64,000 bases of DNA from Trypanosoma brucei (lineage: Eukaryota). Made by a program: the position numbers and the translations under genes. The stretch is taken from contig CP000066.1 of NCBI GenBank assembly GCA_000002445.1, forward strand, positions 640,001 through 704,000, given 5' to 3'. Shown in pieces: positions 38,650-60,807 of the stretch. The notes beneath the pieces were generated by a model. It searched no databases. It was given only the letters and a program-made list of their open reading frames with translations, and was not told the DNA's origin. How positions within the stretch are numbered: position 1 is the first letter of the stretch; each line of letters opens with the position of its first letter.

Positions 38650-39158
38650 GAAATCACTCACGTGGATCTCCGCCGTTGGGCTAATGAAGTTATTCAAGTC
38701 CCTGTGTTCAAGCGAGTTCTAAATAAGACGTGAAAAAAAAAAAAGAAAACCGGAAGGTTGCGCGACGAATATTAGGAAGGAAGTCGGACCGATATTGTTT
38801 GTGTTGAAGGTTAGCGAGAGATACGCCCATTTATTTTTATTTATTTATACGCGCGGCCTCATATCTATGTGGAGTAAAACAGAATATCCGCTACCATTCG
38901 TATTTCCAACTTAAATCACCCCTCACCGTGTGCATGTTCCCTACGAAAAGCGGCCGCTAGAAAAGACCCTCAGTTGGCGTCATCATCAGGGCTCTCCAGG
39001 GAACCACCGCGCATAAGGTTTCACAAACGGAGAGTAATCAATCATATAAGAACAACGAGAGCTGCATAAGGTTGGTTGCTTTGCAGCGGTGGCACGGCTG
39101 CGAATTAATATTTCAATTCTCTTCGCTTCGCTTCAGGGAGTGTTGCGAGGCTCATGCA

Positions 39159-40754: not shown

Positions 40755-42252
40755 TACCGTGGTAAAAACGGACAATGCCCTCAGTAAGAAAAAAAAACTT
40801 TGTGGCCGAGTTCCGGCGGACACGAGATGTGTGCACGAAATTAGGACTTCTATCGGTGCCTGTTCCTACAGTTATATACCAACAAAACCAGGAAAAAGAA
40901 GAATGCGCGGTTCCCCAAAGGAAGAGGAAAATATATACGGTAATGACATACAAACATACAGGTACATGTCAGTGGATACACGTTTGCAGTTGAGCGGCTT
41001 TGTAAGAAAGGAATCAACAGGTCAAGGAATAGTGAAGAGGAAATATGAAGAGGGAGGACACAAGTTAACACATAGAGACGGCACTCCAGCACAAGTTAAA
41101 AGACGATTGGCAGAACCCTGCGTGCCGAGTACTGGCTTGTTGTTGTAGTTTTTGTTCCGTATCCCCGCCCCTTCCTGCATGTTTGGTGGTGTAAACAGAC
41201 GTGTGTGCGTATTTTCCCTTTACACGCTTATCGCAGCGGAAGGATATGCAAAAGCAAAGAACGACGGCACAAACAACCAAACAATTTGGCGATTTAAGAA
41301 ATGAAAGAAACGAAAGAGACAAAGTGTCTTCTCCCCTTTTAGTCACTGGGTAGTTTGAAGTGAAAAAGTTTTTCGTATATGTACATTTACTTAAACCTCC
41401 GTACCACGTAAGCAGGAACAACAAGAAGGATACATCGATAAAAAGTAACGCTAGCAAAGGAAAACGAAGCAGTTTATGGTGAGAACAAAAAGGACTAATC
41501 AGCTAGAACTAATGCCCACCACAACACGAAAGAAGACAAAAAAAACTGCATCTCTGCCCGAGTGAATAGAAAATACCTCGCGTATTGATGGAAATGCACA
41601 TGTACTCCTCCCGTACACCAATTGTACTTCACCCCATATGCCCACACAAACACACTAGCAGGCTTATACATGCGTATATATATATACACGCATATGCGTC
41701 GATGTACCTGGTGTGTGTTTCTCATGTGCACAACCTTATGAGCGTATCAACGCGCACCCTGCTCACTTTCTGGGAAACGGTGAGTCACGGTCAGTTGCAG
41801 ACACACCCATATAAACATGCACATAACAAACTATTGCTTACTGGGATCGCTCTCTTTTCACCACTAGACGGTCTCAGCAACGACCTGTTATGGCGTGAAC
41901 GCATTTCGCACGATGAAAACAAATGAACAAACTTGACACAAACAATAAGACTAGCGAGAGGGGGAATGTAATGGAACTTTTCCGATACTTTTTTTTCATC
42001 GGAAGTCAATCAAAGTAATAACAACGAGTGGCCCCCTCTTCTGTTCCGCACTTCAACGTACCCCGCTCCCTCAACTTCATGGGAAAAGATAAGTTAAAGG
42101 GAGGAAGAGAGAGGGGGCTAGTAACTGAGTTAACCCTGGGAACGAGGGCGGAAAGCAACCTCCCGTAATCCCCTTCAGCATACATATTTCTTCGCTCTTT
42201 CTCCCCGTTCCACGCAGGTGGCGAACAGCGTTTGCTTTATTAGAGACATTAT

Positions 42253-45200
42253 TTACGTGTTCCCAACACCCTCCAAGCTTCCCAGTAGCCGCGCGCCGCC
42301 CGAATGACTGTTGAAGGTGAAGTCCATGAAGTGTGGTAGAGCCGTGTTAGCACCTGTGAACTCGGTGCTTTCCATTTTGTGCGAGACGCTATTCTCAGCA
42401 TTACTATCAGAGTTTTGGCCGCTACCCAATGTGGCACAGAATGGTAAACAGAATTCACTCCCCTGCGTTATAAAATTGTGTGACGCCACCGAACTGCGAT
42501 TGCTGTTGAAGTCGTCGTACTGTCTCGACTCTCGGTTAAGGTAGCCAGCCAATATCGGAGAGCGAATATCTGTCGAAGCCAACTCACCTCCTGCTTGATG
42601 GCTTTGCGATAGCACCCGCCGCGTGGCGACGGGTTGGTGACCGACAGGCGGTGGTCGACGCGAGTGATGGCCTACGGTTGGTGAAGAGGTACGTTGACAG
42701 ATCTCTTCCGCAACGCATCGACCCAAGGAGTTGTGCGGGGGGATTCCCGTACGGTTTAACAGCACCGCTCCACGCTTTTTTGACCTACTGGGCACATAAT
42801 CGTCCACGTCGTACGCCACACCCGTAAGTGTATCGGGTAACTCTGCCGCCGGGTGATATACCATCTCAGTAGCCTTACCGCACTCCGTTGCTGAAGTGGA
42901 GTAAGTTGTTCTAGATGAAGAAGAGGCCACAGATGCGTTGAACTTAGGCGATAGACACACACCCCTTACGGAACGTCGTTGACCTTCCTCTCCCACTTGC
43001 TGAACCTCTTCCGCAAGTTTCGTTTCACATTTCGTGGGGGTACACACTGGCCTTTGGTTGTCCTCACCACCATCAACATGGCTGCCCACGTTGACGGTGG
43101 TTCCCAAAGGCGAACCTAAAGCTACCGTCGATGTTGAAAACCCATTGCGAATCCGATCCTCCACCCACTCCATAGCCATCTGCTCCGGAGTCCGAACGTC
43201 CTCTGCACTTGGACCCGAAGAATGCCCCATATCTTTCCTCTTATATGGTTCGGACGGGAACCCCTCTGCAGATGTTGACGTCACCGCGTTAGGTGTTTGT
43301 GGGGCCGACACTGACCCAAAGAAGTCAATCCGCCTCCCTAATTTTGGTTCGCAGTTCGGCTCGTTTGTTTCCTCCTCCTCCCCGAAGTCCGGCTCAGGGG
43401 TGGTGTTGCACTCTGATATCGCCGACAACACCAATCTTTCCCTGGGGCAAACAAGTGGCGTGTGAGAACTTTCTTTCATCCCTTTGAATTCTTCCTCCTC
43501 TTCCACACCGCCTGGAACAATGTCTAAAGGGAATGCTCGAGCCCCTTCTGTTGAAAAGGATACAGAGGCGCTCTGCTCTACCAGCCGGCTCCTCGCTGAA
43601 TTGGTGCGGAGGTCATTATAACGAGAGTGCCGCTTGCGAAGCCCTCGCTGTTGATCGGCCACCCGCTTGCCTGTGGCCGTCACAGCGTGGGGGAAATAAC
43701 GCAGATCATCTGCAGCTCGGAGACGTGGAACGTACGGCGGTTTGATGCCTCCCGACAGAAATAGTTCCCGCCATTCTGCGGGCCGCTGAATTGGGAAACG
43801 GTGTAGGAAATCTTGCGCGAACGGTGCGCCCGGTGGTCTGACAACCTCCGGGTCCGAGGTTCCTTTGGTGTCACTACGACAGCTTCGGCTCGCGACACTT
43901 GCCCTTCTGAGTGAACGGAAACTAGCCAACGGCAAGCCCATCAAGGGGAAAGCTTGGTCCAATGTTGTGTCCGTAGCGTCGCTGACATGAGGTAAGCAAG
44001 AGGTGGCATTACAACTAAGCGTCGACCCACCGGAATTCCTCTGGCCGCAACTGACAATGGATGTTTTCCTCGTGCAGTACAGCTGCGAAGTAGCGTAGGG
44101 ACATAAGAAGAAGGGATGTTCCAAAACACGCTCACCGCAAAGCCGTTTTTCGGGCGACCGCTGAAGTAATGCAAGAATCAAATCCTTCAGTAATGTACAT
44201 GCCTCTGTCAGCTCTTCTGTTGCGTGTTCCGTGAAGGCGTCGCTACTCTCGAGTGACACGGACCCCACAGGAAGAGGGTGGTGTTCCGTGGAGCTCGCGT
44301 TCGCCCTCTCACCACTGGGTGCCGACCACGTTTCCTCAAAACACGTAGCCGTATCATATACGCTCAACGTCTTTTCTGTGACTTCTGAATGCTCAACCAG
44401 ATCTGGGAGGGGAAACGTCCAGAGGGCGGGACCAGATGGTCGCAACGGCTGCCCAGCACTGTCGCCACCGGGCCACGGAGCCGTTGCATGTTGTCTACCA
44501 TCACCCCGCTCGACGAGAGAACCGCGGAACGGCCGGTGGGTGCCGTACTCCTCCTCATACTGGCATGTCAATTGTGCAACACGCGCCGCCAACTCGAGCT
44601 CAGTGATCATGAAATCCCCGGGCTGCAGCTGAACATCGGTTTCAACGATGGATTTCATTATATCGTACCGGTTATTTGCATCGAATGGTCTGCGCCCGTT
44701 TGCCATTTCGAACAGCATGCAACCAAAGCTCCACCAGTCAATACGAGAGTCATGTGCCTCACCCAACAGCACTTCTGGACTCATGTAAAGCGAAGTGCCG
44801 GCATGGAAATCTGTTCGGGTCCCCGAGTCAATCGTACCACCCGCACCCGGAACGCCGCGGTATTTGGCTACACCAAAGTCTGCAAGCACAACATTGCCAT
44901 CAGATGTCATCAGAACATTCTCCGGTTTGAGATCACGGTACACAAAACCCTGCGTGTGCAGATACTGCAAAACTAGAGCGATTTCGATGGCACAAAATAC
45001 TATAATCCGAATAGGCGTGCGACTATCATCGGGGGCGAAGCGCATGGAGGAGAAACGTCCTGGTGAGGGCGGCTGCCTTAAGGGTGACTCGGAAACAATA
45101 ACTTTGCTGTCCGCTAATCCTGACCCTTTCCGTTGGTTGAACCCCGCGCCTCGATGCAATTTACGACGCATTTCCCTAATCCACGGCTTCGTCTCCAGGA

Positions 45201-46038
45201 ACACATACAAGTCACCACCCTGTGCGAAGTCAAGGACGAGGTAAAGGCATGACTGGCTCTGAAATGCCTGGTGAAGGTTGACTAAAAAGGGATGCTTGAA
45301 TGATGCAAGCAGATGCCGCTCGGTGAATGTACATTGGACGCAGTCCTCATCCCACACCTTCTTCTTGGATATCTTCTTGACAGCATAAAATGTATGCGTT
45401 TCTCTATGTCGCGCCAACGTTACCTCAGCAAAGGTGCCCTTACCTATATACGCCAGCAGTTCATAATCCCTAAGTGATCGAGCGGCAGAAGAAGAGTCAC
45501 TCTTGTAGATGGTCCAACTCGGCGATGAGCCTCGGCCCAACCCACTTAAGGCTACATCTTCCCATCCACTCACTTTGAGCGGGGTGTTCGTCAAACTCTT
45601 CACCTCCGAATCCTTATCGTCTTCTACGGATCTATCAGCCGCATCCGCAGGAATAGGAAGGGGTGCTTGACGCTTGCTATGCCCACTAAGGGAAATATCA
45701 CTCCTACTGATTTCACCCAGAAATTCCTCGTGCCCACCATCAATAGAGCCTAGAAGAAAAGTGAAAAAGGCATCGTCATCACCATCCCGTGGTAAGTTTC
45801 CCTCGGAAATACTGCTCTCTGGGGCCGTTGCGCCCGGTGATTTTTTGGTCGTCTCCCCCAGATCCCGGTGGCCTTCATTTAACCTCATTGGGGTGAAGGC
45901 ACTTGGTTGTTGTACATCCGCCTCCGGGGCTCCAGTTTCCTTCATTTTGGTGGTTGTGAGCACATCTGTACTTCCCTTTGCCTTAGACGCGCCTCTCATC
46001 CACGAAAACGCACTCGCTACTCGTTCATAGAAATTCAT
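42253..46038 (-). CDS. 1261-aa Ser/Thr protein kinase, AGC-like catalytic domain, with a roughly 60-aa insert between subdomains and a long low-complexity C-terminal extension
   Basis: Track start at 46089 is TTG. ATG at 46038. Kinase motifs IGKGTFAEV, AVKKISKK, YRDLKPENVLM, ADFGVAK, SPEVL, DWWSFGCMLFEM. Confidence 0.8.
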   Translation of the reverse strand: MNFYERVASAFSWMRGASKAKGSTDVLTTTKMKETGAPEADVQQPSAFTPMRLNEGHRDLGETTKKSPGATAPESSISEGNLPRDGDDDAFFTFLLGSIDGGHEEFLGEISRSDISLSGHSKRQAPLPIPADAADRSVEDDKDSEVKSLTNTPLKVSGWEDVALSGLGRGSSPSWTIYKSDSSSAARSLRDYELLAYIGKGTFAEVTLARHRETHTFYAVKKISKKKVWDEDCVQCTFTERHLLASFKHPFLVNLHQAFQSQSCLYLVLDFAQGGDLYVFLETKPWIREMRRKLHRGAGFNQRKGSGLADSKVIVSESPLRQPPSPGRFSSMRFAPDDSRTPIRIIVFCAIEIALVLQYLHTQGFVYRDLKPENVLMTSDGNVVLADFGVAKYRGVPGAGGTIDSGTRTDFHAGTSLYMSPEVLLGEAHDSRIDWWSFGCMLFEMANGRRPFDANNRYDIMKSIVETDVQLQPGDFMITELELAARVAQLTCQYEEEYGTHRPFRGSLVERGDGRQHATAPWPGGDSAGQPLRPSGPALWTFPLPDLVEHSEVTEKTLSVYDTATCFEETWSAPSGERANASSTEHHPLPVGSVSLESSDAFTEHATEELTEACTLLKDLILALLQRSPEKRLCGERVLEHPFFLCPYATSQLYCTRKTSIVSCGQRNSGGSTLSCNATSCLPHVSDATDTTLDQAFPLMGLPLASFRSLRRASVASRSCRSDTKGTSDPEVVRPPGAPFAQDFLHRFPIQRPAEWRELFLSGGIKPPYVPRLRAADDLRYFPHAVTATGKRVADQQRGLRKRHSRYNDLRTNSARSRLVEQSASVSFSTEGARAFPLDIVPGGVEEEEEFKGMKESSHTPLVCPRERLVLSAISECNTTPEPDFGEEEETNEPNCEPKLGRRIDFFGSVSAPQTPNAVTSTSAEGFPSEPYKRKDMGHSSGPSAEDVRTPEQMAMEWVEDRIRNGFSTSTVALGSPLGTTVNVGSHVDGGEDNQRPVCTPTKCETKLAEEVQQVGEEGQRRSVRGVCLSPKFNASVASSSSRTTYSTSATECGKATEMVYHPAAELPDTLTGVAYDVDDYVPSRSKKRGAVLLNRTGIPPHNSLGRCVAEEICQRTSSPTVGHHSRRPPPVGHQPVATRRVLSQSHQAGGELASTDIRSPILAGYLNRESRQYDDFNSNRSSVASHNFITQGSEFCLPFCATLGSGQNSDSNAENSVSHKMESTEFTGANTALPHFMDFTFNSHSGGARLLGSLEGVGNT

Positions 46039-47014
46039 CTTGAGGTAAACGTTTCGAGTGTACCTAAACGTCGCACACGTCGAATCCAAATAAATGCAAA
46101 TTTGCTTTTTTTTCTTTCGTTATTTTTCCTCCCCCTTCAGTGGTGATGAGCGGCAAACTGACCAGTAAGCTTCCACTGCAGCAGATTGTTCCAACAATGA
46201 TGATAATGGTAATAGTAACAATGGGAAACCAACGCGCACGGTTACCCAAAACCACACAGCCGCAATGAAAAAAGAGAAAAGGAGGGCTAGCTACCGATGA
46301 AACTATACAAGTGAAAAAAAAAAAATTAAACTCCTTTTTTATTTCGATGACACTCCTAGAGAAACGACAGGGTAGTCTTATCACCCTGGTGCCCTCCTGT
46401 GAAAGACAATACCTCTCTCTCTTCCGCCCCCTTTCCTTCTGTAGCACTGTGAGGGAGAACAACAACTCCTATTGTGTGCGATTTTCCTCCGGTTTTTGGT
46501 GGGTCAGAAGTTTGAGACCTCTCTCTCTAAAAAAAGAAAGAATATTAGCGCACTTGCAAATAGAAACAGCGTGTATATTTTTTTCTATTTGAAAAAAAAT
46601 ACAATATATATATATATGGGCTTATGTACGTGTGTGAATCTTCAGACCTTTCTGGAATCCCTCAGTTCTCTTGACTAATGGGAAAACTTCGGAAATAGTT
46701 TGATGTCAAATAAACGTGTGAAGTTGAGTTATACAGCGGTCAAGAAAGAAGGGAAAAGACGAAAAAGAGATTTTTTTTTTTAAAGGAAAAAAGGAGAAAT
46801 GTAAGTTCGTTGCAATTAACAAAGATTATTTTTAATGACATTTATCTTGTGGTACATCTGACTAGATGCTTATACGTTGAAAAGGGCCAAACGATTCTCC
46901 AGAAGCTGCAACAACCGGTTCGTGTAAAGGAGCGCTCAGCCCTGAGCACACAACGCGACAGCTCCACCGTTTTATCTCCCCCCCCCCCTCATCACTTCCG
47001 TCTCGTCGCACTCA

Positions 47015-48181
47015 CTAGGCGAATGCCTCCAAAATACCCTTCTCAAGAAAGGCTGAAAGCTCCTCATTATCTCCCGTGTATTGCTCCAAATCTTCCACAA
47101 CCCTATACACGTCAAGACTATTCTTTGGCCTGGCAATGACGAGTTGCATTACATCCTGCTCCGTCCACTGGCGGCGTCGAGGCTCGGGTGTGGCAGCATC
47201 AATGAAGGTGACACCGCCCCTACTAAGTCGACCTGCACTTGCACCACTGGCTACCGGATGCTGATCACTGAGAAACATCGCGAGTGGAACAGTAGGCTGA
47301 GCAAACAACTTACGGGCTCGATCTTCCACAGGTCGCCTTTCATGCCACTTGCCTTCGTCCTTCCCTGAAGCTGGCGATTCATCGCCGTTCTGGTTTGCTA
47401 CTCCAACACGCCTCTGCAACTCACGCAACACAACGTTAAGTCGTGCGGCACTTTCCCGCTCTGCATCACGGCCTTGTTGTTCCCATAGTGAGAGTAGTGA
47501 CTCCATCCCTCTCACATGGCCGACAGTTCCTGGCCGATGCTTCTCCAACAGTCGTAAGGCCTCCGCCTGCACCGAATCATCAAAAGCGCCAATACTCTTA
47601 TCAACGCTATCTTCATTTCTACCTTCTTCATTTTCACACGCAGCTGCTGGTGCGAGTTGTTGGTTCTCCGCCTGCTCATCAGCGTGGGCCTCCAGTCTAC
47701 TAGCACAAGCGGTACGGAGACGACAGGGTTGCCTGTTATAAATGCTTGAAGGGCCGTAAATTGCCCGAACACCATCATTGCCACTAATGGTGGAGTAGCG
47801 GCTTAGGTAACGCAGCACTCTCACCTCCGTTAAAAGTACCACCAGATGAGACGCAGCGGGTGATGCAAGTAATGCGCTGTTCTTTGGGGGATTTAAGAGA
47901 CCCACAGGTGGTGTGGACATGAAACCCGAATAGGAGGCCTCAGAAGACTTTAGAACCGCATCGGGTGGATAAAAGAAATTGGATTGGGTGGCAGTTGCCA
48001 TCGATTGACTACCTGCTTTCGGGGCAGTAATCCGCTGGCTCTGCTGTTGAGCAATGCTGCTGTTCCCAAGGAACTGAAGCCCAAACGACGGCTGATGTTT
48101 CCCGTTCCGCTCATCACGTCGACGGCGAAGCAGCGAAAACACCTCACCGTTTGTCATGGGAACGCCTTCTGAAAGGATCAT
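47015..48181 (-). CDS. 388-aa hypothetical protein
   Basis: Track start at 48262 is TTG. First ATG at 48181. ORF on the unit strand. Confidence 0.4.
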   Translation of the reverse strand: MILSEGVPMTNGEVFSLLRRRRDERNGKHQPSFGLQFLGNSSIAQQQSQRITAPKAGSQSMATATQSNFFYPPDAVLKSSEASYSGFMSTPPVGLLNPPKNSALLASPAASHLVVLLTEVRVLRYLSRYSTISGNDGVRAIYGPSSIYNRQPCRLRTACASRLEAHADEQAENQQLAPAAACENEEGRNEDSVDKSIGAFDDSVQAEALRLLEKHRPGTVGHVRGMESLLSLWEQQGRDAERESAARLNVVLRELQRRVGVANQNGDESPASGKDEGKWHERRPVEDRARKLFAQPTVPLAMFLSDQHPVASGASAGRLSRGGVTFIDAATPEPRRRQWTEQDVMQLVIARPKNSLDVYRVVEDLEQYTGDNEELSAFLEKGILEAFA

Positions 48182-48843
48182 CTCTCTGTCTAACACCGCT
48201 GCCTGCGCCCGTGCACAAATGCGAGTACAAATACACGAAAAAAAAAAAGGAGAGGCCTCCAAAGTTCCAGTTCTGTTTCCTTTGCCTTTATTTCCACTAG
48301 GTCAAGGTCACGACTTTGCTGTTAACGCCTGTGCGACTTTAAGTGTCAAACGCTGTCGCTTGTTGCTATCAGACAAGCCACACCACTTTCGCTTCCAGTG
48401 TAGGCCTACGACAGCGCTAACTTCAGCCAAAGCGACAAAACATATATAAACATACGTACGTGTATATATAAGAAAGACAGTACGAAGATGATCATAACAG
48501 CAATAAAAACAGTGAGAATGATAAACAAGTACCAGTTTGTGAACAACTAGCTGTGAAAACAGAGCTCTGACGGTTAAATAGTCTGAGAAACGAGGGAAAA
48601 TGTACTGACGTGCGGTCCTGGCAACAGTCACTTGCATACACATCAATACATCTGTATTGAAATATTTCATGTCCCCTTCCAAGTCGCACAGTACCAACAC
48701 GGAATCGAAACGTTAAATTTACAAACAAAAAAGGCAGTAATAAGGGTAAAGGTGAGAAAGGGAGCACTCACGCGACTGCTGCAGAGAGGGAAAGAATTTC
48801 CCGCCCTTCAGACGAGGCGTCGCTATTTTTCCTTTTCTTTGTT

Positions 48844-48859
48844 TGTGTGTATACGTGTG

Positions 48860-48895
<36 letters not shown>
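48844..48895. repeat. (GT)n microsatellite of about 26 units, with one GC interruption
   Basis: Direct read: gtgtgtgtgcgtgtgtgtgtgtgtgtgtgtgtgtgtgtg. Confidence 0.9.
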
Positions 48896-49179
48896 GATAA
48901 GGGGGAAGGAATATTGCCGGTAACGTTAATAGGAAAGGAAAAGAATTTTTAAAAAAGCAGTTAAAAAAGGAAAGAAGTAGAGCGCGTGGTATATTTAGCG
49001 CAAATCGAATAGGCATTATTTGAGCCACAAACCCTCTGCTGCCTGATAACCTCATTCCCCTCGAAAAGAAAGAAAAAGAAGGAAAGGAAAAAAGGAAAAG
49101 GAACGATATACATCTTACCACGTCAAGGGGGAAAACATACATCATTATATAAGTGCATATACATACTTCCACGTATATT

Positions 49180-49181
<2 letters not shown>

Positions 49182-49212
<31 letters not shown>
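49182..49212. repeat. (TA)n microsatellite
   Basis: Direct read: tatatatatatatatatatatatatatatat. Confidence 0.9.
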
Positions 49213-49216
<4 letters not shown>

Positions 49217-49653
49217 CCCTTTTCCTTTATTAACATACTCCCTTATCGAAACACGATTTTTTCCCCGCACTCCTTCCATTTTACTCTCGCGTTGTCTTCC
49301 TTCTTTGCTTTGCGTTAGACGTACTTCTGAATACGCTTTCACAGATTCCCTCCTCGTGAAATCTCTTGTTGCTGTTTAGAGAACTTGTACACAAACTTAG
49401 GCGGCCACCGCAGCTGAGACGAAAATGCGGTGGACGTCCACAGTTGCATACAAATCAATGGAAAAGAGGGAAAAAACGTGATATAATATAGCAAAAACAT
49501 AACGAAACGAAAAGGTAAACCGACAAAGAAAACAAAAAAAGAGGAAAACCATAACGATACACAACCCTAGAAGCAACAGTAGTGACAACAATTGCGGCTG
49601 CGGATATGAACCTGCCGTCCCGCACAGACACGCACACACACATAAATATACGA

Positions 49654-49677
49654 ATATATATATATATATATATATAT
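49654..49677. repeat. (TA)n microsatellite immediately 3' of the PFK-2 stop codon
   Basis: Direct read. Confidence 0.85.
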
Positions 49678-49700
49678 TCCCTCACCTTCCGTCGTCTCAC

Positions 49701-52700
49701 TCATTCGCTCGGCTGCAGTGGGCGGTCACAGGGCTTTACCAGCTGGTGTACGGTTATATCACCCTTCACGCTAATTTCTACTACAGCGTGTGAAGGGAGG
49801 CGCAAAGCTGGAGCCATTTCAGGCAACGCATCAGCAAAGAATGCGAGAACCCCTTGCGCTGGTACGGATGAGGCGACAACAAACACCGGACCACGCACCC
49901 GCATGACGGCCATAAGTGCCGGCTCCAACCGAACATTTACCTGCCTGCAACTCTCACCGTTGGGAAACTGCACGCAGTAAGAAAGACGAGGGTCCGCCCC
50001 GTTGGGAACATGGAGAAAGCGGCGAAGGCCCTCCGCACATATATTAGCAGCGTCTGATGCGCATTCTGCCGTCCCCAGTAACGGTGGCTCCTCTTGCTGA
50101 GCCTTCTCTTTTCCAGGGTCAGCAACTTCATCATCCGCTGCGATATAGGAACCACTCCCCATCGGCGAGCCTGCGTAGAGAAGCTTGCAGAGTTTTGAGT
50201 ATCTGATCCGTACCTGCTTAACTGTCCGACCGCAAAACCGCCCAAAATTGATTCTGTCGAGACCGGGAAGTGGACAAAGCAACTCCGCCAGCGGCACGCA
50301 AAAGCCGCCGCATCCGCGAGCCCCCCTCGGGAAACTGCTGCCATCGTCGCTGCTGTCCGGCTCTAAAGCCTGTTCCAGTGGCCGCAGTGTATTCATAACG
50401 TTCGGATTTGTTCCGTGAAGCACGACCATGTTGGGTGCATCCCGCTCCAATATAAACCGCTTTAGGGCATCCGCAAACTTCTCACCAAGAGGGGTGAGGC
50501 GGTCATCCCCGCCGTATATGTGTTTCCTGTCACCCACGGTTTCCCCGGGAACCGCAATATAAATGGGATGAGCAACAGGGTGAAGATTTAATAAAAAGAA
50601 CGAGATGAGACTTGCTAGTCCGCAGGGAATCTTGTGAAGAATGACATGATGCTTTGCATTGATAATGCGAATGAAACTAATGCCTTCATCCGCATCCAGC
50701 TGCTCGTACACCTTTTCATACTCCGCAATCCGAGAGTAAAATGCGGAGATCACCTCACCCGCGTCCTTGACATTCTTAAAGTCATCATTACCACACTTTG
50801 CACGTAGTATGTTCTCTGTGATGAGGTTTAAATCATTGCACACTGACTCAATGAATATTACTCTACAGTTGATGTTGTGTTTCTTTGCTTCCTGTTGCAA
50901 GCACTCCAACAAATACTTCCTGCGAGCCTTCGTGGTGTTTGTTGCGTCAAACACGCCACAGGCCACCCGATGGTGGGCAATAAAATGAATAAGATCTCCA
51001 AAAGCAAGAGTTGCCACCTTGTCACGCATTTGCTTCGCCTGCAAATTTTGCGGATCATAGAAATCTGCACTGCACGTACCCTCCACACCGAGGAGCCTAC
51101 GGCGGTAGTTCCCGACATTAAACACACGACAGGGAACTCCCTTCCAATTAAGATAACGTGCGATCCGTCGGCCAATAAACGACTTCCCCCGTCCCGGTAA
51201 CCCCACCATACAAACAATGAGGGAAACCGCATCCGACACAGTCGTATAACTTGAGGACATGTTGGCAATGTCGTCCACTGCATTAGGTAATCTCCCTTCC
51301 GCCCCTTGATCCCTCACCCTGTTCAAGCAATCTCTCGCACGGTATTGTGCCACCATATCAGGGGGGAGGGCGGAAAAGAGAACGCTATCGCCCGGTGACA
51401 CGGCCAGCGGTGCCTTGGATCCCCATCCACGCGTCCCTTTCGTATCCTTCACTGTAGACTGCGACGCGGATCCCTTTTTGCAGCTGGGAAGTGAAATGGA
51501 CGGCATCGCTGGCGAATTTCCACCACATGAAGGTCCTTCTGTTGCCGCAGCGCCACATGTGGGCGTGCCGTGATAATTTGGGGAAATAGAGCCGTTACCA
51601 CGGCTTGAATGAACGTGATGATGTCGCTGCTCCTTTTTCATCTGAGCATGCTTCGTCACCGCCACTAGAAGGCGGCACACACCACTATGACGGTTCTCCG
51701 CAGCCCAATCAAGCGGCGTACGACCCGTGTTGTCGATTGCCGTAATGTCGGCACCAAACGATATGAGAACGCGCACTACGGATTCGTTTCCTCCGAGCGC
51801 CGCCACGTGAAGCGGGGTGCAACCATTGTAATCCCGTTGGTTGACATCTACTAGTTTCCGTTCTAGCAAATAGTGCAGCTCCGATGAATTACAGGCGCGG
51901 ACAAGAGCAAATATATTCCACGCAGAGACTTCACGTTGAAGCCAACCGAGTTGAACCTGCAAGAAGCCCTTGCGTCTCTGCAGTTCGGCTATGAGAGCGT
52001 TGCGACACTTCTCACGCGCCGCTAATGGATCATTAGGATCTGGAATGCTGAGCTGGGGCAATAGTAACCCCTTCCTCTTGTGGCAGCAGGAAGGCGACGC
52101 GCGGCGTTCATCGAATTTGCACATATCCTCCTCAGGGCATGATAGGCACCGCGAGTGATGAGGCATCTTGTCTATTGGCAATAACACCTCTCCTTTACTC
52201 CTTAGTCCTCGTCCAACATTCCGCACACAAGATTCTAGAGGGAGTGACATGAACCTTCCACGTTTGCACATACCCAATTGCTGTGAAGAGGCTACGGACA
52301 CACCATCGCTATCCCCTGAGGTTGCATGGCCCAAATTCCCCAGTAACGACGCCCCAAACTCTGAAACCCCGCATCCCCCCACGCTTGAAGCCGCACCACT
52401 GGCCAAAAACGGCGAGGCGTGGCTGCTACTCCTTAGTGAGGGGCTCCTGTGTGATGGACTTGCGCCATAAATATGAACCCATTCCTGTTCATTGGAATCT
52501 TGTGAAGAAGGCGGGTTCCTTCTCACATCTACTCCCATAGGTCCTCCTCTTCCCTCTGCCGCATCCACTTCTTCCTCTTTCCCTCTTCGTCCAGGGGTAA
52601 CTGAAATAACTTCACATGGCGGTCGTCTCCCCTCATCGGTGGAGTCCGCCGCGGCCTCATTTCCTTCTTCTCCTCCTCTTCCTCCTATTTTTGTTGCGGT

Positions 52701-52772
52701 CGTTGCTGTTTTAGAGGTCGTTTCCAACAACTTTTCCGACAACGCGCAACAAACGTGATTTTGTGGATTCAT
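49701..52772 (-). CDS. 1023-aa 6-phosphofructo-2-kinase/fructose-2,6-bisphosphatase homologue with N-terminal ankyrin repeats. The kinase motifs are intact. The bisphosphatase domain lacks its catalytic Arg/His residues
   Basis: ATG at 52772 (the track M at 52775 is TTG). Ankyrin repeat: GCTPLHVAALGGNESVVRVLISFGADITAIDNTGRTPLDWAA. PFK-2 motifs: VCMVGLPGRGKSFIGRRIARYLNW and FNVGNYRR. FBPase-2 region: IYIAVPGETV...GGDDRLTPLGEKFA aligns to the canonical IYLCRHGESE...GGDSGLSARGKQYA, so RHG is replaced by VPG. The second catalytic His context (ICHQAV) reads VVASSVPAQ here. Confidence 0.8.
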   Translation of the reverse strand: MNPQNHVCCALSEKLLETTSKTATTATKIGGRGGEEGNEAAADSTDEGRRPPCEVISVTPGRRGKEEEVDAAEGRGGPMGVDVRRNPPSSQDSNEQEWVHIYGASPSHRSPSLRSSSHASPFLASGAASSVGGCGVSEFGASLLGNLGHATSGDSDGVSVASSQQLGMCKRGRFMSLPLESCVRNVGRGLRSKGEVLLPIDKMPHHSRCLSCPEEDMCKFDERRASPSCCHKRKGLLLPQLSIPDPNDPLAAREKCRNALIAELQRRKGFLQVQLGWLQREVSAWNIFALVRACNSSELHYLLERKLVDVNQRDYNGCTPLHVAALGGNESVVRVLISFGADITAIDNTGRTPLDWAAENRHSGVCRLLVAVTKHAQMKKEQRHHHVHSSRGNGSISPNYHGTPTCGAAATEGPSCGGNSPAMPSISLPSCKKGSASQSTVKDTKGTRGWGSKAPLAVSPGDSVLFSALPPDMVAQYRARDCLNRVRDQGAEGRLPNAVDDIANMSSSYTTVSDAVSLIVCMVGLPGRGKSFIGRRIARYLNWKGVPCRVFNVGNYRRRLLGVEGTCSADFYDPQNLQAKQMRDKVATLAFGDLIHFIAHHRVACGVFDATNTTKARRKYLLECLQQEAKKHNINCRVIFIESVCNDLNLITENILRAKCGNDDFKNVKDAGEVISAFYSRIAEYEKVYEQLDADEGISFIRIINAKHHVILHKIPCGLASLISFFLLNLHPVAHPIYIAVPGETVGDRKHIYGGDDRLTPLGEKFADALKRFILERDAPNMVVLHGTNPNVMNTLRPLEQALEPDSSDDGSSFPRGARGCGGFCVPLAELLCPLPGLDRINFGRFCGRTVKQVRIRYSKLCKLLYAGSPMGSGSYIAADDEVADPGKEKAQQEEPPLLGTAECASDAANICAEGLRRFLHVPNGADPRLSYCVQFPNGESCRQVNVRLEPALMAVMRVRGPVFVVASSVPAQGVLAFFADALPEMAPALRLPSHAVVEISVKGDITVHQLVKPCDRPLQPSE

Positions 52773-53755: not shown

Positions 53756-55060
53756 TCATGAAAGGAAATAAACCTTCATTTCCTTGGAAGGTCTGAAAAG
53801 GTTACATAGCACCGCGAGTGACATAAGACCAGCTCGGACAGATATTACCGTCAACAAAACAATTCGCAGGCTCGCAGCATCCGCCGCAGCAACTTTTTGT
53901 AATTTCGCAGCATCCCACCCTTCTGTAAGAGCAATTTGCGCCACGGTGAGGGCCGTGCAAGTTATATACAACGGTACAATCGGCTTCAACAATAACATCC
54001 ACGGACTTTTAAGCGATACCTCAACTTCCCACGAAGCGGCAGCAGCAGCGTTAGGCGCAACATCACCTCCATGGGAAATGTCTTTGTGCTGTTGCAAGTG
54101 ACTTTGTGTTTTGACTCCTGCATTTGAATGCCTCACATCACACCGTAAGCCAGGAGCCACTACTGTTGCAGCATTGCTACACGTATCAACATGTGAAGTG
54201 ACGGGATTGCACGAAATGGGGAAACGCGCACCGTCAATAATACCCTCGCGACGGAACAAATGCTGAGGAAGAGGATTAATACCAGCGGGGCATCTATCAC
54301 TCACTTCCTCAGCGCACTGTTTATTTGCAAACCTCCATGCAAATGGCGTCAAGGAGGCAACTAAAAGTAAAATGAACAAGAACTGAAAAGCAGCACCCTC
54401 ATAACTGTGTGTGATGGCAATGTACAGAAGTAGTGAATCCTCCACCGATTCTTTCTCCCACGCTACAAAAATAATGAGCCACAAGAGTGAAAAGATGGAA
54501 GCGCCTGCGGTTAGCGAACTCATCGTCACCTCCATATGGTTCATGTATAAAAGCAGCACTTTGATTGCGTGGCGGTTTCCTTCCGCGGAATCAACTGGTT
54601 CGGGGAGATGTAAAGGCCGAGCTCCTATACCTGCGCTGTTATGTGTCTTAATTCTACATCCAATACATGACGACTGCGGCTGCGGCATTTCACGCATCAC
54701 ATCAGAGACAACGTCATCCCCCGTCAACTCTCCGCATTTGTTTTGCTCAACGACAGGCACGAACACATTGGGGCGCGATTCCAAAACAACGTGTTTCCGC
54801 TGCGGTGGGATCCCCCGCTGCAAATCACAATTACAGCCCTCACGAACAGCCTCTGGACTCTCCGGTTCAGCGAAGAGATTTATGCCAACGAACCCATCGT
54901 CAAACTCATCAACGTCTTGCACGTTCCCTGTAGAAATTCCACCATGTGTTGTGTTGTGAAGTCCCCGCTGGTGTCGCCTGCATGACGCGCGTGGTGTGTT
55001 GGCATGAGATGAAGGACAAGTTCCAAATGGGTCAACATATGAAGGAACTGACTTTTGCAT
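53756..55060 (-). CDS. 434-aa hypothetical polytopic membrane protein
   Basis: Track start at 55168 is TTG. ATG at 55060. Several hydrophobic segments (IFSLLWLIIFVAW, FQFLFILLLVASL, IVLLTVISVRAGLMSLAVL). Confidence 0.4.
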   Translation of the reverse strand: MQKSVPSYVDPFGTCPSSHANTPRASCRRHQRGLHNTTHGGISTGNVQDVDEFDDGFVGINLFAEPESPEAVREGCNCDLQRGIPPQRKHVVLESRPNVFVPVVEQNKCGELTGDDVVSDVMREMPQPQSSCIGCRIKTHNSAGIGARPLHLPEPVDSAEGNRHAIKVLLLYMNHMEVTMSSLTAGASIFSLLWLIIFVAWEKESVEDSLLLYIAITHSYEGAAFQFLFILLLVASLTPFAWRFANKQCAEEVSDRCPAGINPLPQHLFRREGIIDGARFPISCNPVTSHVDTCSNAATVVAPGLRCDVRHSNAGVKTQSHLQQHKDISHGGDVAPNAAAAASWEVEVSLKSPWMLLLKPIVPLYITCTALTVAQIALTEGWDAAKLQKVAAADAASLRIVLLTVISVRAGLMSLAVLCNLFRPSKEMKVYFLS

Positions 55061-55722
55061 TGAGATTGCTCTTATCGTCACCAGTAATCCCTTTTGCCTT
55101 TGATTTTTTTTTAAAATGGAGCTTCTTCTCACAAATGTAATGACTTCCACCTCACCAAACTCACACAACGACGGTCTAGAAGACGAAGGGGGGAAATGAC
55201 GTTATAATGTGGGAAAAGATGTCTGTTTTCTTCGCGTTTTAATTTTATTTGGGGACCTTTGTATAAATTGCCTTAACAAACATTCATGAACACTAAATAA
55301 CCCCTGCAACACAAATTCTCAGTTGAAGAAGAGAAGATACGGAGGAAAAGAATAATACGAAAAACAAAAACTGATAAATTAAGTCAGTTCGGAACACATG
55401 CAAAGAAGATGTGAAAGCTTCTACTTGTACAACTAACAAAAGCAATTTCGTTATACAATGAAAAAACACAGCGGCAGGTGGAAAAAAAACATTCTTCTAG
55501 AGAAAAAGCAACAAGTCTATGCCCGATAGATCCTCTTCCTCCTACCCCCTTCGGTACTTAGAAGGCAGAAGAAGCAGAGGGAGATCGTACCCACAAGCGG
55601 GAAATGATCGTTGTATGGTAGAGAAGGAACCGGATTCCAACTCTGCTGCTCACTTATGATACGCAAACTGCTTAGCATTACACACACACGCACACACCCT
55701 TATCAACTCGCATGAATCTCCG

Positions 55723-58700
55723 TTACTTCCGCTTTGCCGGCCGCTTTCGCAGATCCTCTGGCACGTAATCACGCCTATGATCCAAAGGCTGTTCGTAGTT
55801 GAGATGCCGCCTTAGCGTTTCATGTAGATGTGTGGCTGGAGCCGTATCCTCCAAATGTTCAGATCCGCTTCCACTTGATGTTAATTTGGTGGTCTTCGCG
55901 GTGTTGGCGGATGTAGAGGTACTTTCCGTCTTTGTTGTTGATGTTCCCGCAGGTGACGATGGCTTCGGCATGTGATGGCGGTGCTGCTTACTCACGGGTT
56001 CCTGTTCAAGGTGAAAAGAGGAAGAGTACCGAGTTGTCTCGGTCGTCTTCGAAGACGAGCCTTCAGCATTGTGGAAATGCCGGTACACGTCACAGCAACC
56101 TTCTCCAAGCAGAGAAACAATGGGCCGGGCAGCGGCCGCAACATTGGCCGTTGGCACCGTACCACGGCGTCTAGTGAACTGTGGGGTTCCGCCCTCAGTG
56201 AGGCTGCTAGTGTGAGCTGAAGAGAGCCACGAAGAGGAATCAGCGGCATCTATTTCCATTAGCAGTCTCCTTCGAACATCCCGCTCCACTGGTTCAGTGG
56301 AATCCTCGTCATCGTCATCTGTCGTTGCTGTTGCCCTCCCGTCAGTCACAGCAATTCCGACACGTTGTTTGGGATACGTTGGTTGTCTCCCTTCAGCCGC
56401 CATACTCGCTTCCCGCAGCTTTTCCCCAAACGTCTTCTCCGTCTTTCGAGGGTCAAACTCACGCATCCACTCGAATATGAATTTTGTAATGGGGTCACGA
56501 ATTCCAGTTGAAGGTGCAGCTTTCGCCGGATCATCTCCCGCGGAGGCATAAGAAACATCAGCTGGAGCAGCAGGAAGAGAGTGGCTTCGCTCCACCCTTG
56601 TGTGCCTAACCACCTCAGACATCACAGGAGACTGCCTCTGAGCCGCCAACCTCTCATTCAGCATGCTTTCCAAAATATGTTGCTGTTGTTTCTTCTCCCT
56701 CTCCACACGGACGATGTGCTCGTGCTCCCAATCCCACATCATCACAAATGAATACCGCATCATCTCTTCTTGCTCACACACCAACTGCCGGCGATGGTAC
56801 TCGCCCTCCTCACACAAACGACGTGCCTCAGCGAGCTGCTCCTCATGGATGGCCCTGTGGACAAGTTGAGGCTCTCCGGATACTGGGAGATGTGGAGGGA
56901 CGGATGAAATGGGGAGTAGAAGTGGCAGGGGCGGAACCGTTTCTTCCGGAACATTCGGCGCCGGTATCTCTTGTCGCAGCGGTGGGACATCTAAAACCGC
57001 GACTTGCGTAACAGTGCCACCGAGTCCACTAGACTGCAAATCAGGAAGTTCAAGCCGTGGTAAAGTCTCCTCAGTTGAGCATGGTAGCCGCGGGTCTTCA
57101 GTCATGGGACCCGGACCCTCTGTCATTTGGCGCCACTGCTGCATCCCTTCGTGTAACTGCTCTGCTGCTTGCGGCAGCAGCCGCGCAGTGGTTAGAAGTT
57201 GAGTTACCGGTGCCACATCGAGGACGATTCTGATCGTGTTACCCCCAACCGCCCCATCAGAGATGACCGCGGGATCCCCGATAGCACCTTCCACTGCCAC
57301 AGCAACATTGGAAAGCGTCGCGGCTGATGGGGTTACAAAATCGCCACCGGTAACTCCGCCTACGTCTTGTTGTTGTTTCAGCTGCGGCTGCAAATGAGCA
57401 CTAGTAGTCTCTATCTCTGCTGACGGTGACCGAAGTGGATCATCACCCGCTCGGATGATTTCATGAACCCACTGCGGGCTTTCCTGTGTCATTACGCCTT
57501 CCAACTGAGCATGCGCTGAATGAAGCGAAGGAGATCCCACACTGGGTGTTGCTTCTGCCTTTCCTTCTTGGGCGCTTTCATCATTCCTGATGCCACATTC
57601 CTCTTCAACAGAGTCTTTTTCGGCACCTTCCACCGCATCCGCGATGACCCTTACCAACTCCTCTTGAATGTGGTGCAGTAGTGTTTCCTCCCGGCTCACA
57701 CTTTCAAATGCAGGAGCACCGAAAGAACCGTAACGGTTCCTTAAACCTTTCACAGTTTCTGCCATTTGTAGTTGTGTTATGTCACCTGGTTCTTCGTCAG
57801 AGGCAGCCCTATCATTCTCCAGAATTCTATGGATTTCAGCTCTCACAATGTCACTTTCGAGAAGCTGCATCAGTTCGCCAAATAGGTCTCCCTCAACTCC
57901 TTCTTCAATGACACAGCGAATCACGTCGCTAGAAATGAGTTCACATAGCCGCCGCTCAAACCTCTCCCCCACGCCTTCTTCGAAGGAAGTGGACGGTTCA
58001 CCGAATTTCCGTTTGTTGCCACCAATCGAGAGCTCCTTAATACGCTCTAAACGACGCCTTGCCTCCAGCAGCGACTGCGCCTCAACAGCGCGCAGCTCAG
58101 CTCGACGGCGCGGAGTTAACTCATCGCGCTCAACACCGTAGAAGTAGGCATCACACGGCCGCTCAAGTCCTCCTTCAACATTGTTTGTAGGAGGTGGTAC
58201 GTGAAGATTAACATCAAAGGCATTTTGGACCATCCGCTTCCGGGCCAACTCGTCTGGGGTGAGATTGTCGCCGAGCAAAACAACGCTGCGCATAAACATC
58301 GCTTCCGCCTCACGCCGACCACAGCCACGGCTGTCACCAATGGCGGCAGCAGCTGCGGCGTCCTCAAACGTACGTGTTAAACCACCCTCGAGCCTAACAG
58401 TATCCGGTAGGTCGTCTCGGAATGAAGGAAAAGATGAAGCGAGGGCAATTTCTTCGGTATTCTCAAATCCACGGGCTCTATTAATCTGTGCGTTCTTGAC
58501 ATCAAACGCATAAGAAGGCACAACAGATCCGATATTCTCTTGAGTGGCACTTAGGGAAGGCTGTGAACCGTTACCTCGTGGGGATGCAGCGCTGTTCCTC
58601 TTGGACTGCGACGCAGAAGTGGCACGGCCCTTTGCCGTTCCACCCGATGATAGCCCACTTCCACGCTTAACGGCTACACCTCTCATTTTCGCTGAGGCCG

Positions 58701-60807
58701 GCAACGACCCGCTTGCCCTTCGGTCTTTAGAGACGGAGCCACGCTTCCCAGATTCAGGGTCACAAAAATCCTTCGCGGCCTCCCCTCCTTCATCATCAGA
58801 AAGAACCACAACCTCTTCCGTTCGTGCCTTCCCGCCAGCTTGAGGTGAGGGGCTGGGAGAAGTTGTGGTGGCCCCTTCACCTTCCCCTGGAAGGAGCACA
58901 ACCTTGAAGGGCCCCTTCGTTGTTGACTGGGCCCCCTCACCCCCGCTGGGCTCAGCAGAAGTCCCCGGTTTGTTTCTAGCGACGCTCTTTTCGGGTGGCT
59001 GCCTTCTTCCCACCTTTCGCGCAGGCAAGCCACCGCGCCGGGCCTTTGATGGCTGATTACGACCTTGGAAAGGTGAAACTTTGCTCACAGGGGTCCGCGT
59101 GCCCGTTTCGCACAGCACCTTGGACACCATTTGCTGCATCGCGCGCTGTTGCTGTAACTGCGATGCATGCTGCATTCGTTGTTGACGCACTTCCTGAGCC
59201 GCAATGATACGCTTAGTCTCTTCAGCGTTCACCCGCTGTTGGTTCATCGTGAAATTGTGCATAGCCTCCGCCGCGGCCTTCTTCTCCCTTTCAAAGGCAT
59301 CCTTCTGATTCTGCACGAGTTCCGTCCACGCCCGACGCTCGTCACGCAAAATACGTTCGTATTGTTGGTGAACCCGCTGCAGCTCCTCCTTTATTACGTG
59401 AGGGGGAGGGATGGGTCGCGGGGGGGGAATCGGGGGCTCAGGCTGATTAGACATAATTGTGATAACGGGCGGAATCGATCGTTGCGGGCTTCGACGTAGT
59501 TGCTGGTGTTGCTGCTGCTCCGTTCGCTGAACCATTCCTGTGGTATGATGCAGCTCTGGTACTTGCATGGCTTCTGGAACGTACAAATTGAACAGTGGAT
59601 CGGGACGCGGTGCCATAAGACGCCTCCGCGCCGCCTCCTGTTGCTCCTTTGAGTGTCTTCGAAGGCTTTCCTCCTGCGCTGCGGATAGTCGCTCGAGCAG
59701 TCGGCGCTGGTCCTGAAGCTCCTCTATCAGTTCCCTGGGTATCGTTGGTAAGGATCCAGCTACAAGCCTCGCCAACTCCTCTACTGACGGCGGCTTCGCC
59801 TTCGCGGCACGAGGCGGCGGTGACACAACCGGTGGCGCGGCCTCCCCTCGCACCGCGCTGCCCTTTTTCCCAGTAAAAACGGGTATCTCATTTTTAGGAC
59901 AGTGAATCCGCTGGGCCTCCTGACAGCGATGGATGCACGCCACAACGTCTGGACGATCTGACTGTACACTATAATCAAGAAGCCGCATCGCCTCTTTCAC
60001 ACTTTCAGAGTCGGGAAAGATGTCCCGAAGGTTGTCACTAGATGTGCCTCGTTGCTGCGCTTCCAGCAGCAATACGTCGTTGCCCCGTGCAGCCGCAGAA
60101 CCGTGAAGTATCGGCGCCACATAACGGTCCGGATCAAAGTCGGATTCTCCAGCTGAAGACGAGGAGTCCTCAACGCCAGAGCCTGCTTCATGGATGCCTA
60201 TGATGCTGTGAGCCTTGCGCACACGACGGCCCTGCCTGTTTTTGATTCTCTCCATACGAAGTTTCAGCCTTCCGAGATCGTCAAGGATAGCCTCCGGGGA
60301 ATCGTGATCGGGCGCGTTGCCCAAAGGAGGTGACAAGAGACGAGATGGCGTGAGCACTTCCTTTTCAGTAAGCAACGCCTCATCATCTCCCCGCAGCTTT
60401 TCCTCACGCGCGACCTCCCGCCAAATATCATTTATTCGATAGGTATCTGGATGTATCGTTTGACCCTTCAGCTCTTCCCGTGTGCGGTGAAGAGAATCCT
60501 TCCAATGAGACTGGAACTCACGTTCGGCCGTCTCGTCGTCCACATCGTCGTGGTCATGGCCTGCTGTGAAACTGCCATCGCCATCAGAGAAGACAAGACC
60601 GGCATCAGACTGCAAATGCCCATCTGCATCAGCCATCATTTCGAAGCTGTGAAACTCTTGCAGCACCTCACGCCTTGAGGCAGCTGCCGTCTCGGACACC
60701 GCGCCACGGACGAGACTGGGAACAGTAGTGGCAACACTCGTGGAGGGCCTCATGCGCTTGTAAAGGAGTGTGGGTTTTTCGGTTCGTATGGGAATTGTGA
60801 GAGACAT
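55723..60807 (-). CDS. 1694-aa hypothetical protein, largely low-complexity/coiled-coil (Gln/Arg/Glu-rich), with a basic C-terminus
   Basis: ATG confirmed at 60805-60807. Very long uninterrupted ORF on the unit strand. No recognisable enzymatic motif. Confidence 0.5.
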   Translation of the reverse strand: MSLTIPIRTEKPTLLYKRMRPSTSVATTVPSLVRGAVSETAAASRREVLQEFHSFEMMADADGHLQSDAGLVFSDGDGSFTAGHDHDDVDDETAEREFQSHWKDSLHRTREELKGQTIHPDTYRINDIWREVAREEKLRGDDEALLTEKEVLTPSRLLSPPLGNAPDHDSPEAILDDLGRLKLRMERIKNRQGRRVRKAHSIIGIHEAGSGVEDSSSSAGESDFDPDRYVAPILHGSAAARGNDVLLLEAQQRGTSSDNLRDIFPDSESVKEAMRLLDYSVQSDRPDVVACIHRCQEAQRIHCPKNEIPVFTGKKGSAVRGEAAPPVVSPPPRAAKAKPPSVEELARLVAGSLPTIPRELIEELQDQRRLLERLSAAQEESLRRHSKEQQEAARRRLMAPRPDPLFNLYVPEAMQVPELHHTTGMVQRTEQQQHQQLRRSPQRSIPPVITIMSNQPEPPIPPPRPIPPPHVIKEELQRVHQQYERILRDERRAWTELVQNQKDAFEREKKAAAEAMHNFTMNQQRVNAEETKRIIAAQEVRQQRMQHASQLQQQRAMQQMVSKVLCETGTRTPVSKVSPFQGRNQPSKARRGGLPARKVGRRQPPEKSVARNKPGTSAEPSGGEGAQSTTKGPFKVVLLPGEGEGATTTSPSPSPQAGGKARTEEVVVLSDDEGGEAAKDFCDPESGKRGSVSKDRRASGSLPASAKMRGVAVKRGSGLSSGGTAKGRATSASQSKRNSAASPRGNGSQPSLSATQENIGSVVPSYAFDVKNAQINRARGFENTEEIALASSFPSFRDDLPDTVRLEGGLTRTFEDAAAAAAIGDSRGCGRREAEAMFMRSVVLLGDNLTPDELARKRMVQNAFDVNLHVPPPTNNVEGGLERPCDAYFYGVERDELTPRRRAELRAVEAQSLLEARRRLERIKELSIGGNKRKFGEPSTSFEEGVGERFERRLCELISSDVIRCVIEEGVEGDLFGELMQLLESDIVRAEIHRILENDRAASDEEPGDITQLQMAETVKGLRNRYGSFGAPAFESVSREETLLHHIQEELVRVIADAVEGAEKDSVEEECGIRNDESAQEGKAEATPSVGSPSLHSAHAQLEGVMTQESPQWVHEIIRAGDDPLRSPSAEIETTSAHLQPQLKQQQDVGGVTGGDFVTPSAATLSNVAVAVEGAIGDPAVISDGAVGGNTIRIVLDVAPVTQLLTTARLLPQAAEQLHEGMQQWRQMTEGPGPMTEDPRLPCSTEETLPRLELPDLQSSGLGGTVTQVAVLDVPPLRQEIPAPNVPEETVPPLPLLLPISSVPPHLPVSGEPQLVHRAIHEEQLAEARRLCEEGEYHRRQLVCEQEEMMRYSFVMMWDWEHEHIVRVEREKKQQQHILESMLNERLAAQRQSPVMSEVVRHTRVERSHSLPAAPADVSYASAGDDPAKAAPSTGIRDPITKFIFEWMREFDPRKTEKTFGEKLREASMAAEGRQPTYPKQRVGIAVTDGRATATTDDDDEDSTEPVERDVRRRLLMEIDAADSSSWLSSAHTSSLTEGGTPQFTRRRGTVPTANVAAAARPIVSLLGEGCCDVYRHFHNAEGSSSKTTETTRYSSSFHLEQEPVSKQHRHHMPKPSSPAGTSTTKTESTSTSANTAKTTKLTSSGSGSEHLEDTAPATHLHETLRRHLNYEQPLDHRRDYVPEDLRKRPAKRK

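Follow-up and report, generated by a model that had tools for sequence, protein, structure and literature searches.

Does a trypanosome protein that carries both halves of a 6-phosphofructo-2-kinase/fructose-2,6-bisphosphatase (PFK-2/FBPase-2) make fructose 2,6-bisphosphate (Fru-2,6-P2), degrade it, or do both? The question is raised by a single open reading frame (ORF) on the minus strand of a 64,000-nucleotide stretch of Trypanosoma brucei (GenBank contig CP000066.1, positions 640,001 to 704,000). This stretch is called the window below, and all coordinates refer to it. A first-pass annotation of the sequence had predicted a kinase-only enzyme with ankyrin repeats, able to make Fru-2,6-P2 but not to degrade it. 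Our analysis identifies the ORF as Tb927.3.2710 and makes it very likely that it encodes a monofunctional PFK-2 with a folded but dead bisphosphatase half.

Gene identity and the kinase half

The ORF starts with an ATG at 52770-52772, ends with a stop codon at 49701-49703 and encodes 1023 amino acids (aa). The reading frame is interrupted by a stop codon eight codons before the ATG, which is therefore the first possible start. The ORF finder, run with the bacterial code, extended the ORF by one TTG codon, which has no bearing on a eukaryote gene. The protein is identical in sequence to XP_843864.1 / AAZ10305.1 / UniProt Q582Y3 of T. brucei brucei TREU927. It also shares 1018 of 1023 residues (99%, 0 gaps; same 90% cluster) with AAS77611.1 (Q6PY95), which was deposited as '6-phosphofructo-2-kinase [Trypanosoma brucei]'; the five differences are strain-level. 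The top T. cruzi match in the homology search is named '6-phosphofructo-2-kinase 1', and these three matches place the protein in the kinase-only, ankyrin-bearing class to which it had been assigned.

Primers for quantitative reverse-transcription PCR of Tb927.3.2710 were given by Kabani et al. 2009 (PMC2753553). Each primer has one perfect match in the window, at 52444-52463 (-) and 52285-52304 (+), where no chance matches are expected. The two sites are convergent and lie inside the ORF, and the gene is therefore Tb927.3.2710. By analogy it is probably isoenzyme 1, because of the name of the T. cruzi match and because Tb3 (Tb927.10.4520) and Tb4 (Tb927.8.1020; PMC8483307) lie on other chromosomes.

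The protein has five parts: an N-terminus, a long helix, three ankyrin repeats, a 6PF2K kinase domain and a domain with the histidine-phosphatase fold (Table 1). Pfam 6PF2K (PF01591) matched aa 512-732 with 206 bits against a cut-off of 27 (E 5.5e-61), and the Pfam scores for the kinase and ankyrin families are far above chance level. The signatures GLPGRGKS (Walker A) and FNVGNYRR, which the first-pass annotation had used to recognize the kinase, are both present. All 14 kinase residues that we checked were invariant in 44 of 44 aligned homologues, canonical bifunctional enzymes included: K530 and S531 (Walker A), R557 and R558 (YRR), R583, D609, T611 and N612 (Walker B region), R617, R618, E642, K659, R681 and Y685. 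This set covers the Walker A Lys and Ser/Thr, the Walker B Asp, the YRR and RR pairs, the catalytic Lys, and Arg and Tyr of the site for fructose 6-phosphate (F6P). We take these residues to bind ATP and F6P as in the rat testis and PFKFB3 structures. The kinase domain is intact, and the protein is predicted to have PFK-2 activity.

The bisphosphatase half

The C-terminal half is only weakly recognized by Pfam, where the score of His_Phos_1 (PF00300) at aa 934-1005, 15.7 bits, falls short of the cut-off of 21.7. A sequence search of the PDB with the C-terminal 523 aa found human PFKFB3, PFKFB2 and PFKFB1 and the rat testis PFK-2/FBPase-2 (E 1e-52 to 1e-56). The match falls into two stretches: the first runs from the kinase into the beginning of the phosphatase, and the second covers the final part of the phosphatase. 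HMMER thus aligns both halves to PFKFB3.

The loss of the triad was read from two kinds of alignment. HMMER placed 'hpiyiavpgetvgd' under 'rtiylcrhgenehn' of human PFKFB3, and 'vfvvassvpaqg' under 'vlvichqavlrc'. A MAFFT L-INS-i alignment combined rat liver FBPase-2, the window protein, eleven relatives, and bacterial and fungal canonical enzymes. Its numbering follows the rat liver sequence, which was identical to PDB 1fbt_A at 190 of 190 positions. At each of the 17 positions compared, the bacterial and fungal enzymes agree with the rat enzyme. In the window protein, the phospho-acceptor H258 is replaced by P742, the proton-donor E327 by R840 and the second catalytic histidine H392 by S968. 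The flanking R257 is V741. Further replacements are N264 by D748, R307 by N791, D329 by N842, Y338 by V851, K356 by R929, Y367 by C942, Q393 by S969 and R397 by Q973; G259 (G743) and E260 (E744) are kept. The whole catalytic triad and most phosphate-binding residues are thus replaced, and in the alignments no orthologue has a canonical residue at the triad columns.

From the replacement of RHG by VPG (IYIAVPGETV) and the absence of the second histidine, the first-pass annotation had concluded that the domain is dead. Both replacements are confirmed by HMMER and MAFFT; the third, that of Glu327, had been missed. We also considered that RHG had been mis-registered or is located elsewhere in the domain, with an intact RHG/His pair. 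This was rejected, as HMMER, MAFFT and the triad columns of the orthologues agree. Because Pro, Arg and Ser occupy the positions of His258, Glu327 and His392, and because most of the residues that bind phosphate are gone, the phospho-histidine intermediate cannot form. A histidine phosphatase without its phospho-acceptor histidine is not expected to stay active, and on its residues the bisphosphatase half is judged to be catalytically dead.

The fold of this domain has nevertheless been kept. An AlphaFold2 model of aa 245-1023, built from the 44-sequence alignment, reached a mean predicted local distance difference test (pLDDT) of 79 and a predicted template modelling score (pTM) of 0.72, with 407 residues at pLDDT >=90. 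In order, it contains the helix, three ankyrin helix pairs, a low-confidence linker, the kinase and a C-terminal alpha/beta domain. The low-confidence parts of the alpha/beta domain are two lineage-specific insertions that the rat enzyme lacks (about aa 801-833 and 866-922), which are also poorly conserved. Foldseek against the PDB ranked whole chains of PFKFB3, PFKFB2, PFKFB1 and PFKFB4 at the top (E 1e-28 to 1e-32; about 500-535 aligned columns; template modelling (TM) score 0.80-0.88, normalised to the target). Next in rank came the rat FBPase-2 domain on its own (1TIP/1FBT; TM 0.86-0.89, 17-18% identity), and then phosphoglycerate mutases. The matches to PFKFB and 1TIP/1FBT imply that the dead domain keeps the histidine-phosphatase fold.

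Conservation and alternative readings

The whole-protein homology search was dominated by ankyrin proteins, and a second search used the catalytic core alone. The retrieved orthologues come from T. congolense, T. vivax, T. cruzi, T. rangeli, T. grayi and Phytomonas. Neither search recovered the T. brucei paralogues Tb2-Tb4, which are therefore absent from the alignments. In every ankyrin-bearing homologue of the 44-sequence alignment, environmental ones included, two or more of the three catalytic residues are missing. Three ankyrin-bearing relatives have 'LHG' for RHG, such that the His is kept and the Arg lost, while Glu327 and His392 are absent. Relatives from metagenomes and transcriptomes, P0103, P0104 and P0108 among them, are about 620-870 aa long and combine ankyrin repeats, PFK-2 and a degenerate FBPase-2; these shorter proteins, which include the three with 'LHG', may come from free-living kinetoplastids. 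We also considered whether published T. cruzi PFK-2 phosphopeptides (PMC6380580) belong to the orthologue of the window gene. This was rejected: the peptides occur in none of the retrieved proteins and therefore derive from a paralogue.

Compared with the other Trypanosoma orthologues, the best-conserved part of the whole protein is the C-terminal core of the pseudo-phosphatase, aa 923-1010, at 81-90% identity versus 67-79% for the kinase (aa 506-732). The first pseudo-phosphatase segment (aa 733-800) showed 69-81% identity, the two insertions 18-39%, and the N-terminus (aa 1-250) 14-28%. By this measure the dead domain is constrained at least as strongly as the kinase.

The N-terminal extension is disordered, and the Pfam scan found no domain in aa 1-248. 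The helix that follows (model residues 5-41) has a block pLDDT of 93-94 and 37-77% identity in Trypanosoma, and can still be aligned in environmental relatives. Possibly it forms a coiled coil through which the protein self-associates. Pfam recognized Ank_2, Ank, Ank_4, Ank_3 and Ank_5 at aa 290-371 (E 1e-14 to 1e-8), and this region, 69-82% identical among Trypanosoma, matched DARPin and ankyrin proteins in the PDB. The ankyrin repeats thus lie N-terminal to the kinase, as first annotated. Their suggested role in regulation by protein-protein interaction was the subject of no test that we found reported in the searchable literature. The linker between ankyrin repeats and kinase is 8-25% identical among orthologues, with pLDDT below 50 at model residues 148-219 (aa 392-463) and blocks of 42-66 onward to aa 505. 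Its low pLDDT suggests that the linker is disordered.

Table 1. Features of Tb927.3.2710 and its product, with window coordinates.
Feature	Window coordinates	Strand	Basis
Complete coding sequence of Tb927.3.2710, ankyrin-bearing 6-phosphofructo-2-kinase, probably isoenzyme 1	49701..52772	-	ORF, database identity, primers
N-terminal extension, aa 1-248, Ser/Gly-rich, poorly conserved	52029..52772	-	Low identity, no Pfam domain
Conserved long helix, aa 249-285, directly ahead of the ankyrin repeats	51918..52028	-	AlphaFold2 model, conservation
Three ankyrin repeats, aa 286-381	51630..51917	-	Pfam, PDB matches, model
Ankyrin-kinase linker, aa 382-505	51258..51629	-	Low pLDDT, low identity
6-Phosphofructo-2-kinase domain, aa 506-732	50577..51257	-	Pfam, PFKFB3 match, invariant residues
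Walker A motif GLPGRGKS, aa 524-531	51180..51203	-
FNVGNYRR motif, aa 551-558	51099..51122	-
Pseudo-FBPase-2 domain, histidine-phosphatase fold, aa 733-1010	49743..50576	-	Structure match, sub-threshold Pfam
VPG at the RHG phospho-acceptor site, aa 741-743	50544..50552	-	HMMER and MAFFT alignments
Arg840 at the catalytic Glu327 site (rat liver numbering)	50253..50255	-	MAFFT alignment
Ser968 at the second catalytic His392 site	49869..49871	-	HMMER and MAFFT alignments

Three points weigh against the monofunctional reading. Glu260 and the GES motif are retained, the public product name of the protein is 'PFK-2/FBPase-2, putative', and the conserved pseudo-phosphatase core is not a decaying relic and may do more than shape the kinase. 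Structural needs alone could account for the strong conservation of the dead domain, and so could a new regulatory role. Repurposing of the domain as a regulatory module that tunes the kinase is a tentative possibility, and it would extend rather than exclude the monofunctional reading. Such a module might sense a ligand, offer a surface on which the ankyrin repeats or a partner dock, or carry phospho-regulated insertions. Besides the identity of its core, this idea is favoured by the two lineage-specific insertions of low pLDDT and by the fact that the clade conserves the replacement residues too (LPG, and the C-terminal core S-Y-C-V-Q-F-P-N-G-E-S-C-R-Q-V-N-V-R-L-E). However, the conservation could also arise simply because the kinase needs the neighbouring domain for its structure, as it does in mammalian PFKFB, and most of the phosphate-binding residues that would sense sugar phosphates are gone.

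A wider version is somewhat more speculative still: the dead FBPase-2 domain might be a conserved pseudo-enzyme regulatory module that, with the helix and ankyrin repeats, controls the activity or location of PFK-2, in an architecture that would predate parasitism. The combination of ankyrin repeats, PFK-2 and pseudo-phosphatase looks older than the parasitic trypanosomatids, because the environmental relatives share it.

That both halves are inactive, leaving a pure scaffold or pseudoenzyme that acts only via its ankyrin repeats, is improbable. Pseudoenzymes are common in trypanosomatids, but here all of the checked kinase residues match the canonical active enzymes, the kinase is well conserved across Trypanosoma, and the depositors of AAS77611.1 named it a 6-phosphofructo-2-kinase. 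Least likely of all is a bifunctional protein whose C-terminal domain hydrolyses Fru-2,6-P2 via other residues: the retained fold, the strong conservation and the phosphatase names given to the gene speak for it, but the nucleophile, the proton donor and the second histidine have become Pro, Arg and Ser, seven further residues (R257, N264, R307, Y338, Y367, Q393 and R397) are replaced too, every orthologue and every ankyrin-bearing relative has lost two or more residues of the triad, and no activity would be expected of such a domain.

Metabolic role, genomic setting and known systems

T. brucei and L. major reportedly have four PFK-2/FBPase-2 genes, with at most one active domain predicted per isoenzyme. 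Recombinant T. brucei proteins are said to have confirmed a PFK-2 and an FBPase-2, and both PFK-2 isoenzymes reportedly have ankyrin repeats in their N-terminal extensions.

The architecture, residues, fold, gene identity and conservation of Tb927.3.2710 were computed here, and the role of Fru-2,6-P2 is taken from the literature; its kinase activity and the role of its ankyrin repeats we infer. In the monofunctional enzyme, ATP would bind at the Walker A/B site and F6P would be held by the conserved arginines. The kinase would then move the gamma-phosphate of ATP to the 2-hydroxyl of F6P, yielding Fru-2,6-P2. Once released, this product would act as an allosteric activator of the cytosolic pyruvate kinase and not of PFK-1. 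The phosphatase half keeps its fold but cannot pass through a phospho-histidine intermediate, and breakdown would be left to separate FBPase-2-type paralogues such as Tb927.10.4520, so that synthesis and breakdown could be controlled independently. The helix and the three ankyrin repeats probably recruit a partner or self-associate, and would thereby control activity or location.

The literature supports the target that had been named at the outset, pyruvate kinase and not PFK-1. Pyruvate kinase is activated by Fru-2,6-P2 and Tb3 has FBPase-2 activity (PMC8483307), the pyruvate kinase of T. brucei is regulated by Fru-2,6-P2 (PMC12965863), and T. brucei PFK-1 (TbPFK) is insensitive to it (PMC10917290). 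The residue status likewise supports the prediction that Fru-2,6-P2 is made and not degraded by this protein.

Kabani et al. 2009 (PMC2753553) found the mRNA of Tb927.3.2710 more than 2-fold enriched in stumpy forms over all other stages, and their text calls the gene 'fructose-2,6-biphosphatase'. The sequence contradicts this label and predicts the opposite activity. Expression data given for Tb927.3.2710 under this name or as 'PFK-2/FBPase-2', the stumpy enrichment among them, should therefore be read as a higher capacity for Fru-2,6-P2 synthesis; a regulatory pseudo-enzyme module, if it exists, could fit the stumpy enrichment as well. The main value of the result is a correct annotation, of a gene predicted to make, not destroy, the activator of trypanosome pyruvate kinase. 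The feature was correctly read in the first-pass annotation, which agrees with the literature on every point, yet was already known: trypanosomatid PFK-2 isoenzymes of the kinase-only, ankyrin-bearing kind were reportedly described by Chevalier et al. in 2005 (FEBS J 272:3542), a study that PMC7729029, PMC10917290 and PMC8406214 cite. The current view of trypanosome glycolytic control is unchanged. What is added to the known story is the conservation of the dead domain, the triad loss in ankyrin-bearing homologues and the mislabelling of a stumpy-enriched gene.

The minus strand carries all substantial ORFs of the window, and the whole window has a negative GC skew, which fits a single trypanosomatid polycistronic unit. 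The immediate neighbours at 47015-48262, 53756-55168 and 55723-60807 have no Pfam domain. Simple repeats follow the stop codon in the 3' flank of the gene (48630-49980); their translations give CV/TH and IY runs, which point to microsatellites of the (TG/CA)n and (TA)n type. Genes further downstream on the same strand (35209-46089) code for a protein kinase of 1278 aa (Pkinase E 6.9e-51), for a 554-aa protein that combines leucine-rich repeats with a ubiquitin-like domain at its C-terminus, and for a TatD-like protein of 729 aa. A tandem array at 249-6210 has a period of 1514 bp, with at least four copies at 96% identity. In three copies the minus strand has an ORF of 218 aa, and in the fourth copy there is a variant of 253 aa. 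The 218-aa product translated from 907-1563 has a hydrophobic N-terminus, several N-x-S/T sites, a hydrophobic C-terminus and no Pfam match, features that suggest a small surface protein or one of the glycosylphosphatidylinositol-anchored type.

Among known systems, T. brucei PFK-2 isoenzyme 1 (AAS77611.1/Q6PY95) is the same gene with a product of the same length, and there is no substantive difference. Mammalian PFKFB1-4 (PDB 2AXN, 1BIF, 1K6M, 5HTK) share with the window protein the kinase and histidine-phosphatase core (E 1e-56) and identical catalytic and F6P/ATP-binding residues in the kinase. In contrast to these enzymes, the window protein lacks the FBPase-2 triad and ligand-binding residues, has two insertions in the phosphatase fold, and carries an N-terminal extension of about 500 aa with the helix and three ankyrin repeats; moreover, trypanosome Fru-2,6-P2 acts on pyruvate kinase instead of PFK-1. 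Yeast PFK26 and PFK27 follow the same logic as the window protein, with an active kinase, an inactive FBPase-2-like half and a separate degrading enzyme. Their loss of activity was independent and involved other substitutions, they have no ankyrin repeats, and the yeast product activates PFK-1. T. brucei Tb3 and Tb4 belong to the same PFK-2/FBPase-2 family, with at most one active domain per protein (PMC8483307), and the FBPase-2 activity of Tb3 is the reverse of that predicted for Tb927.3.2710.

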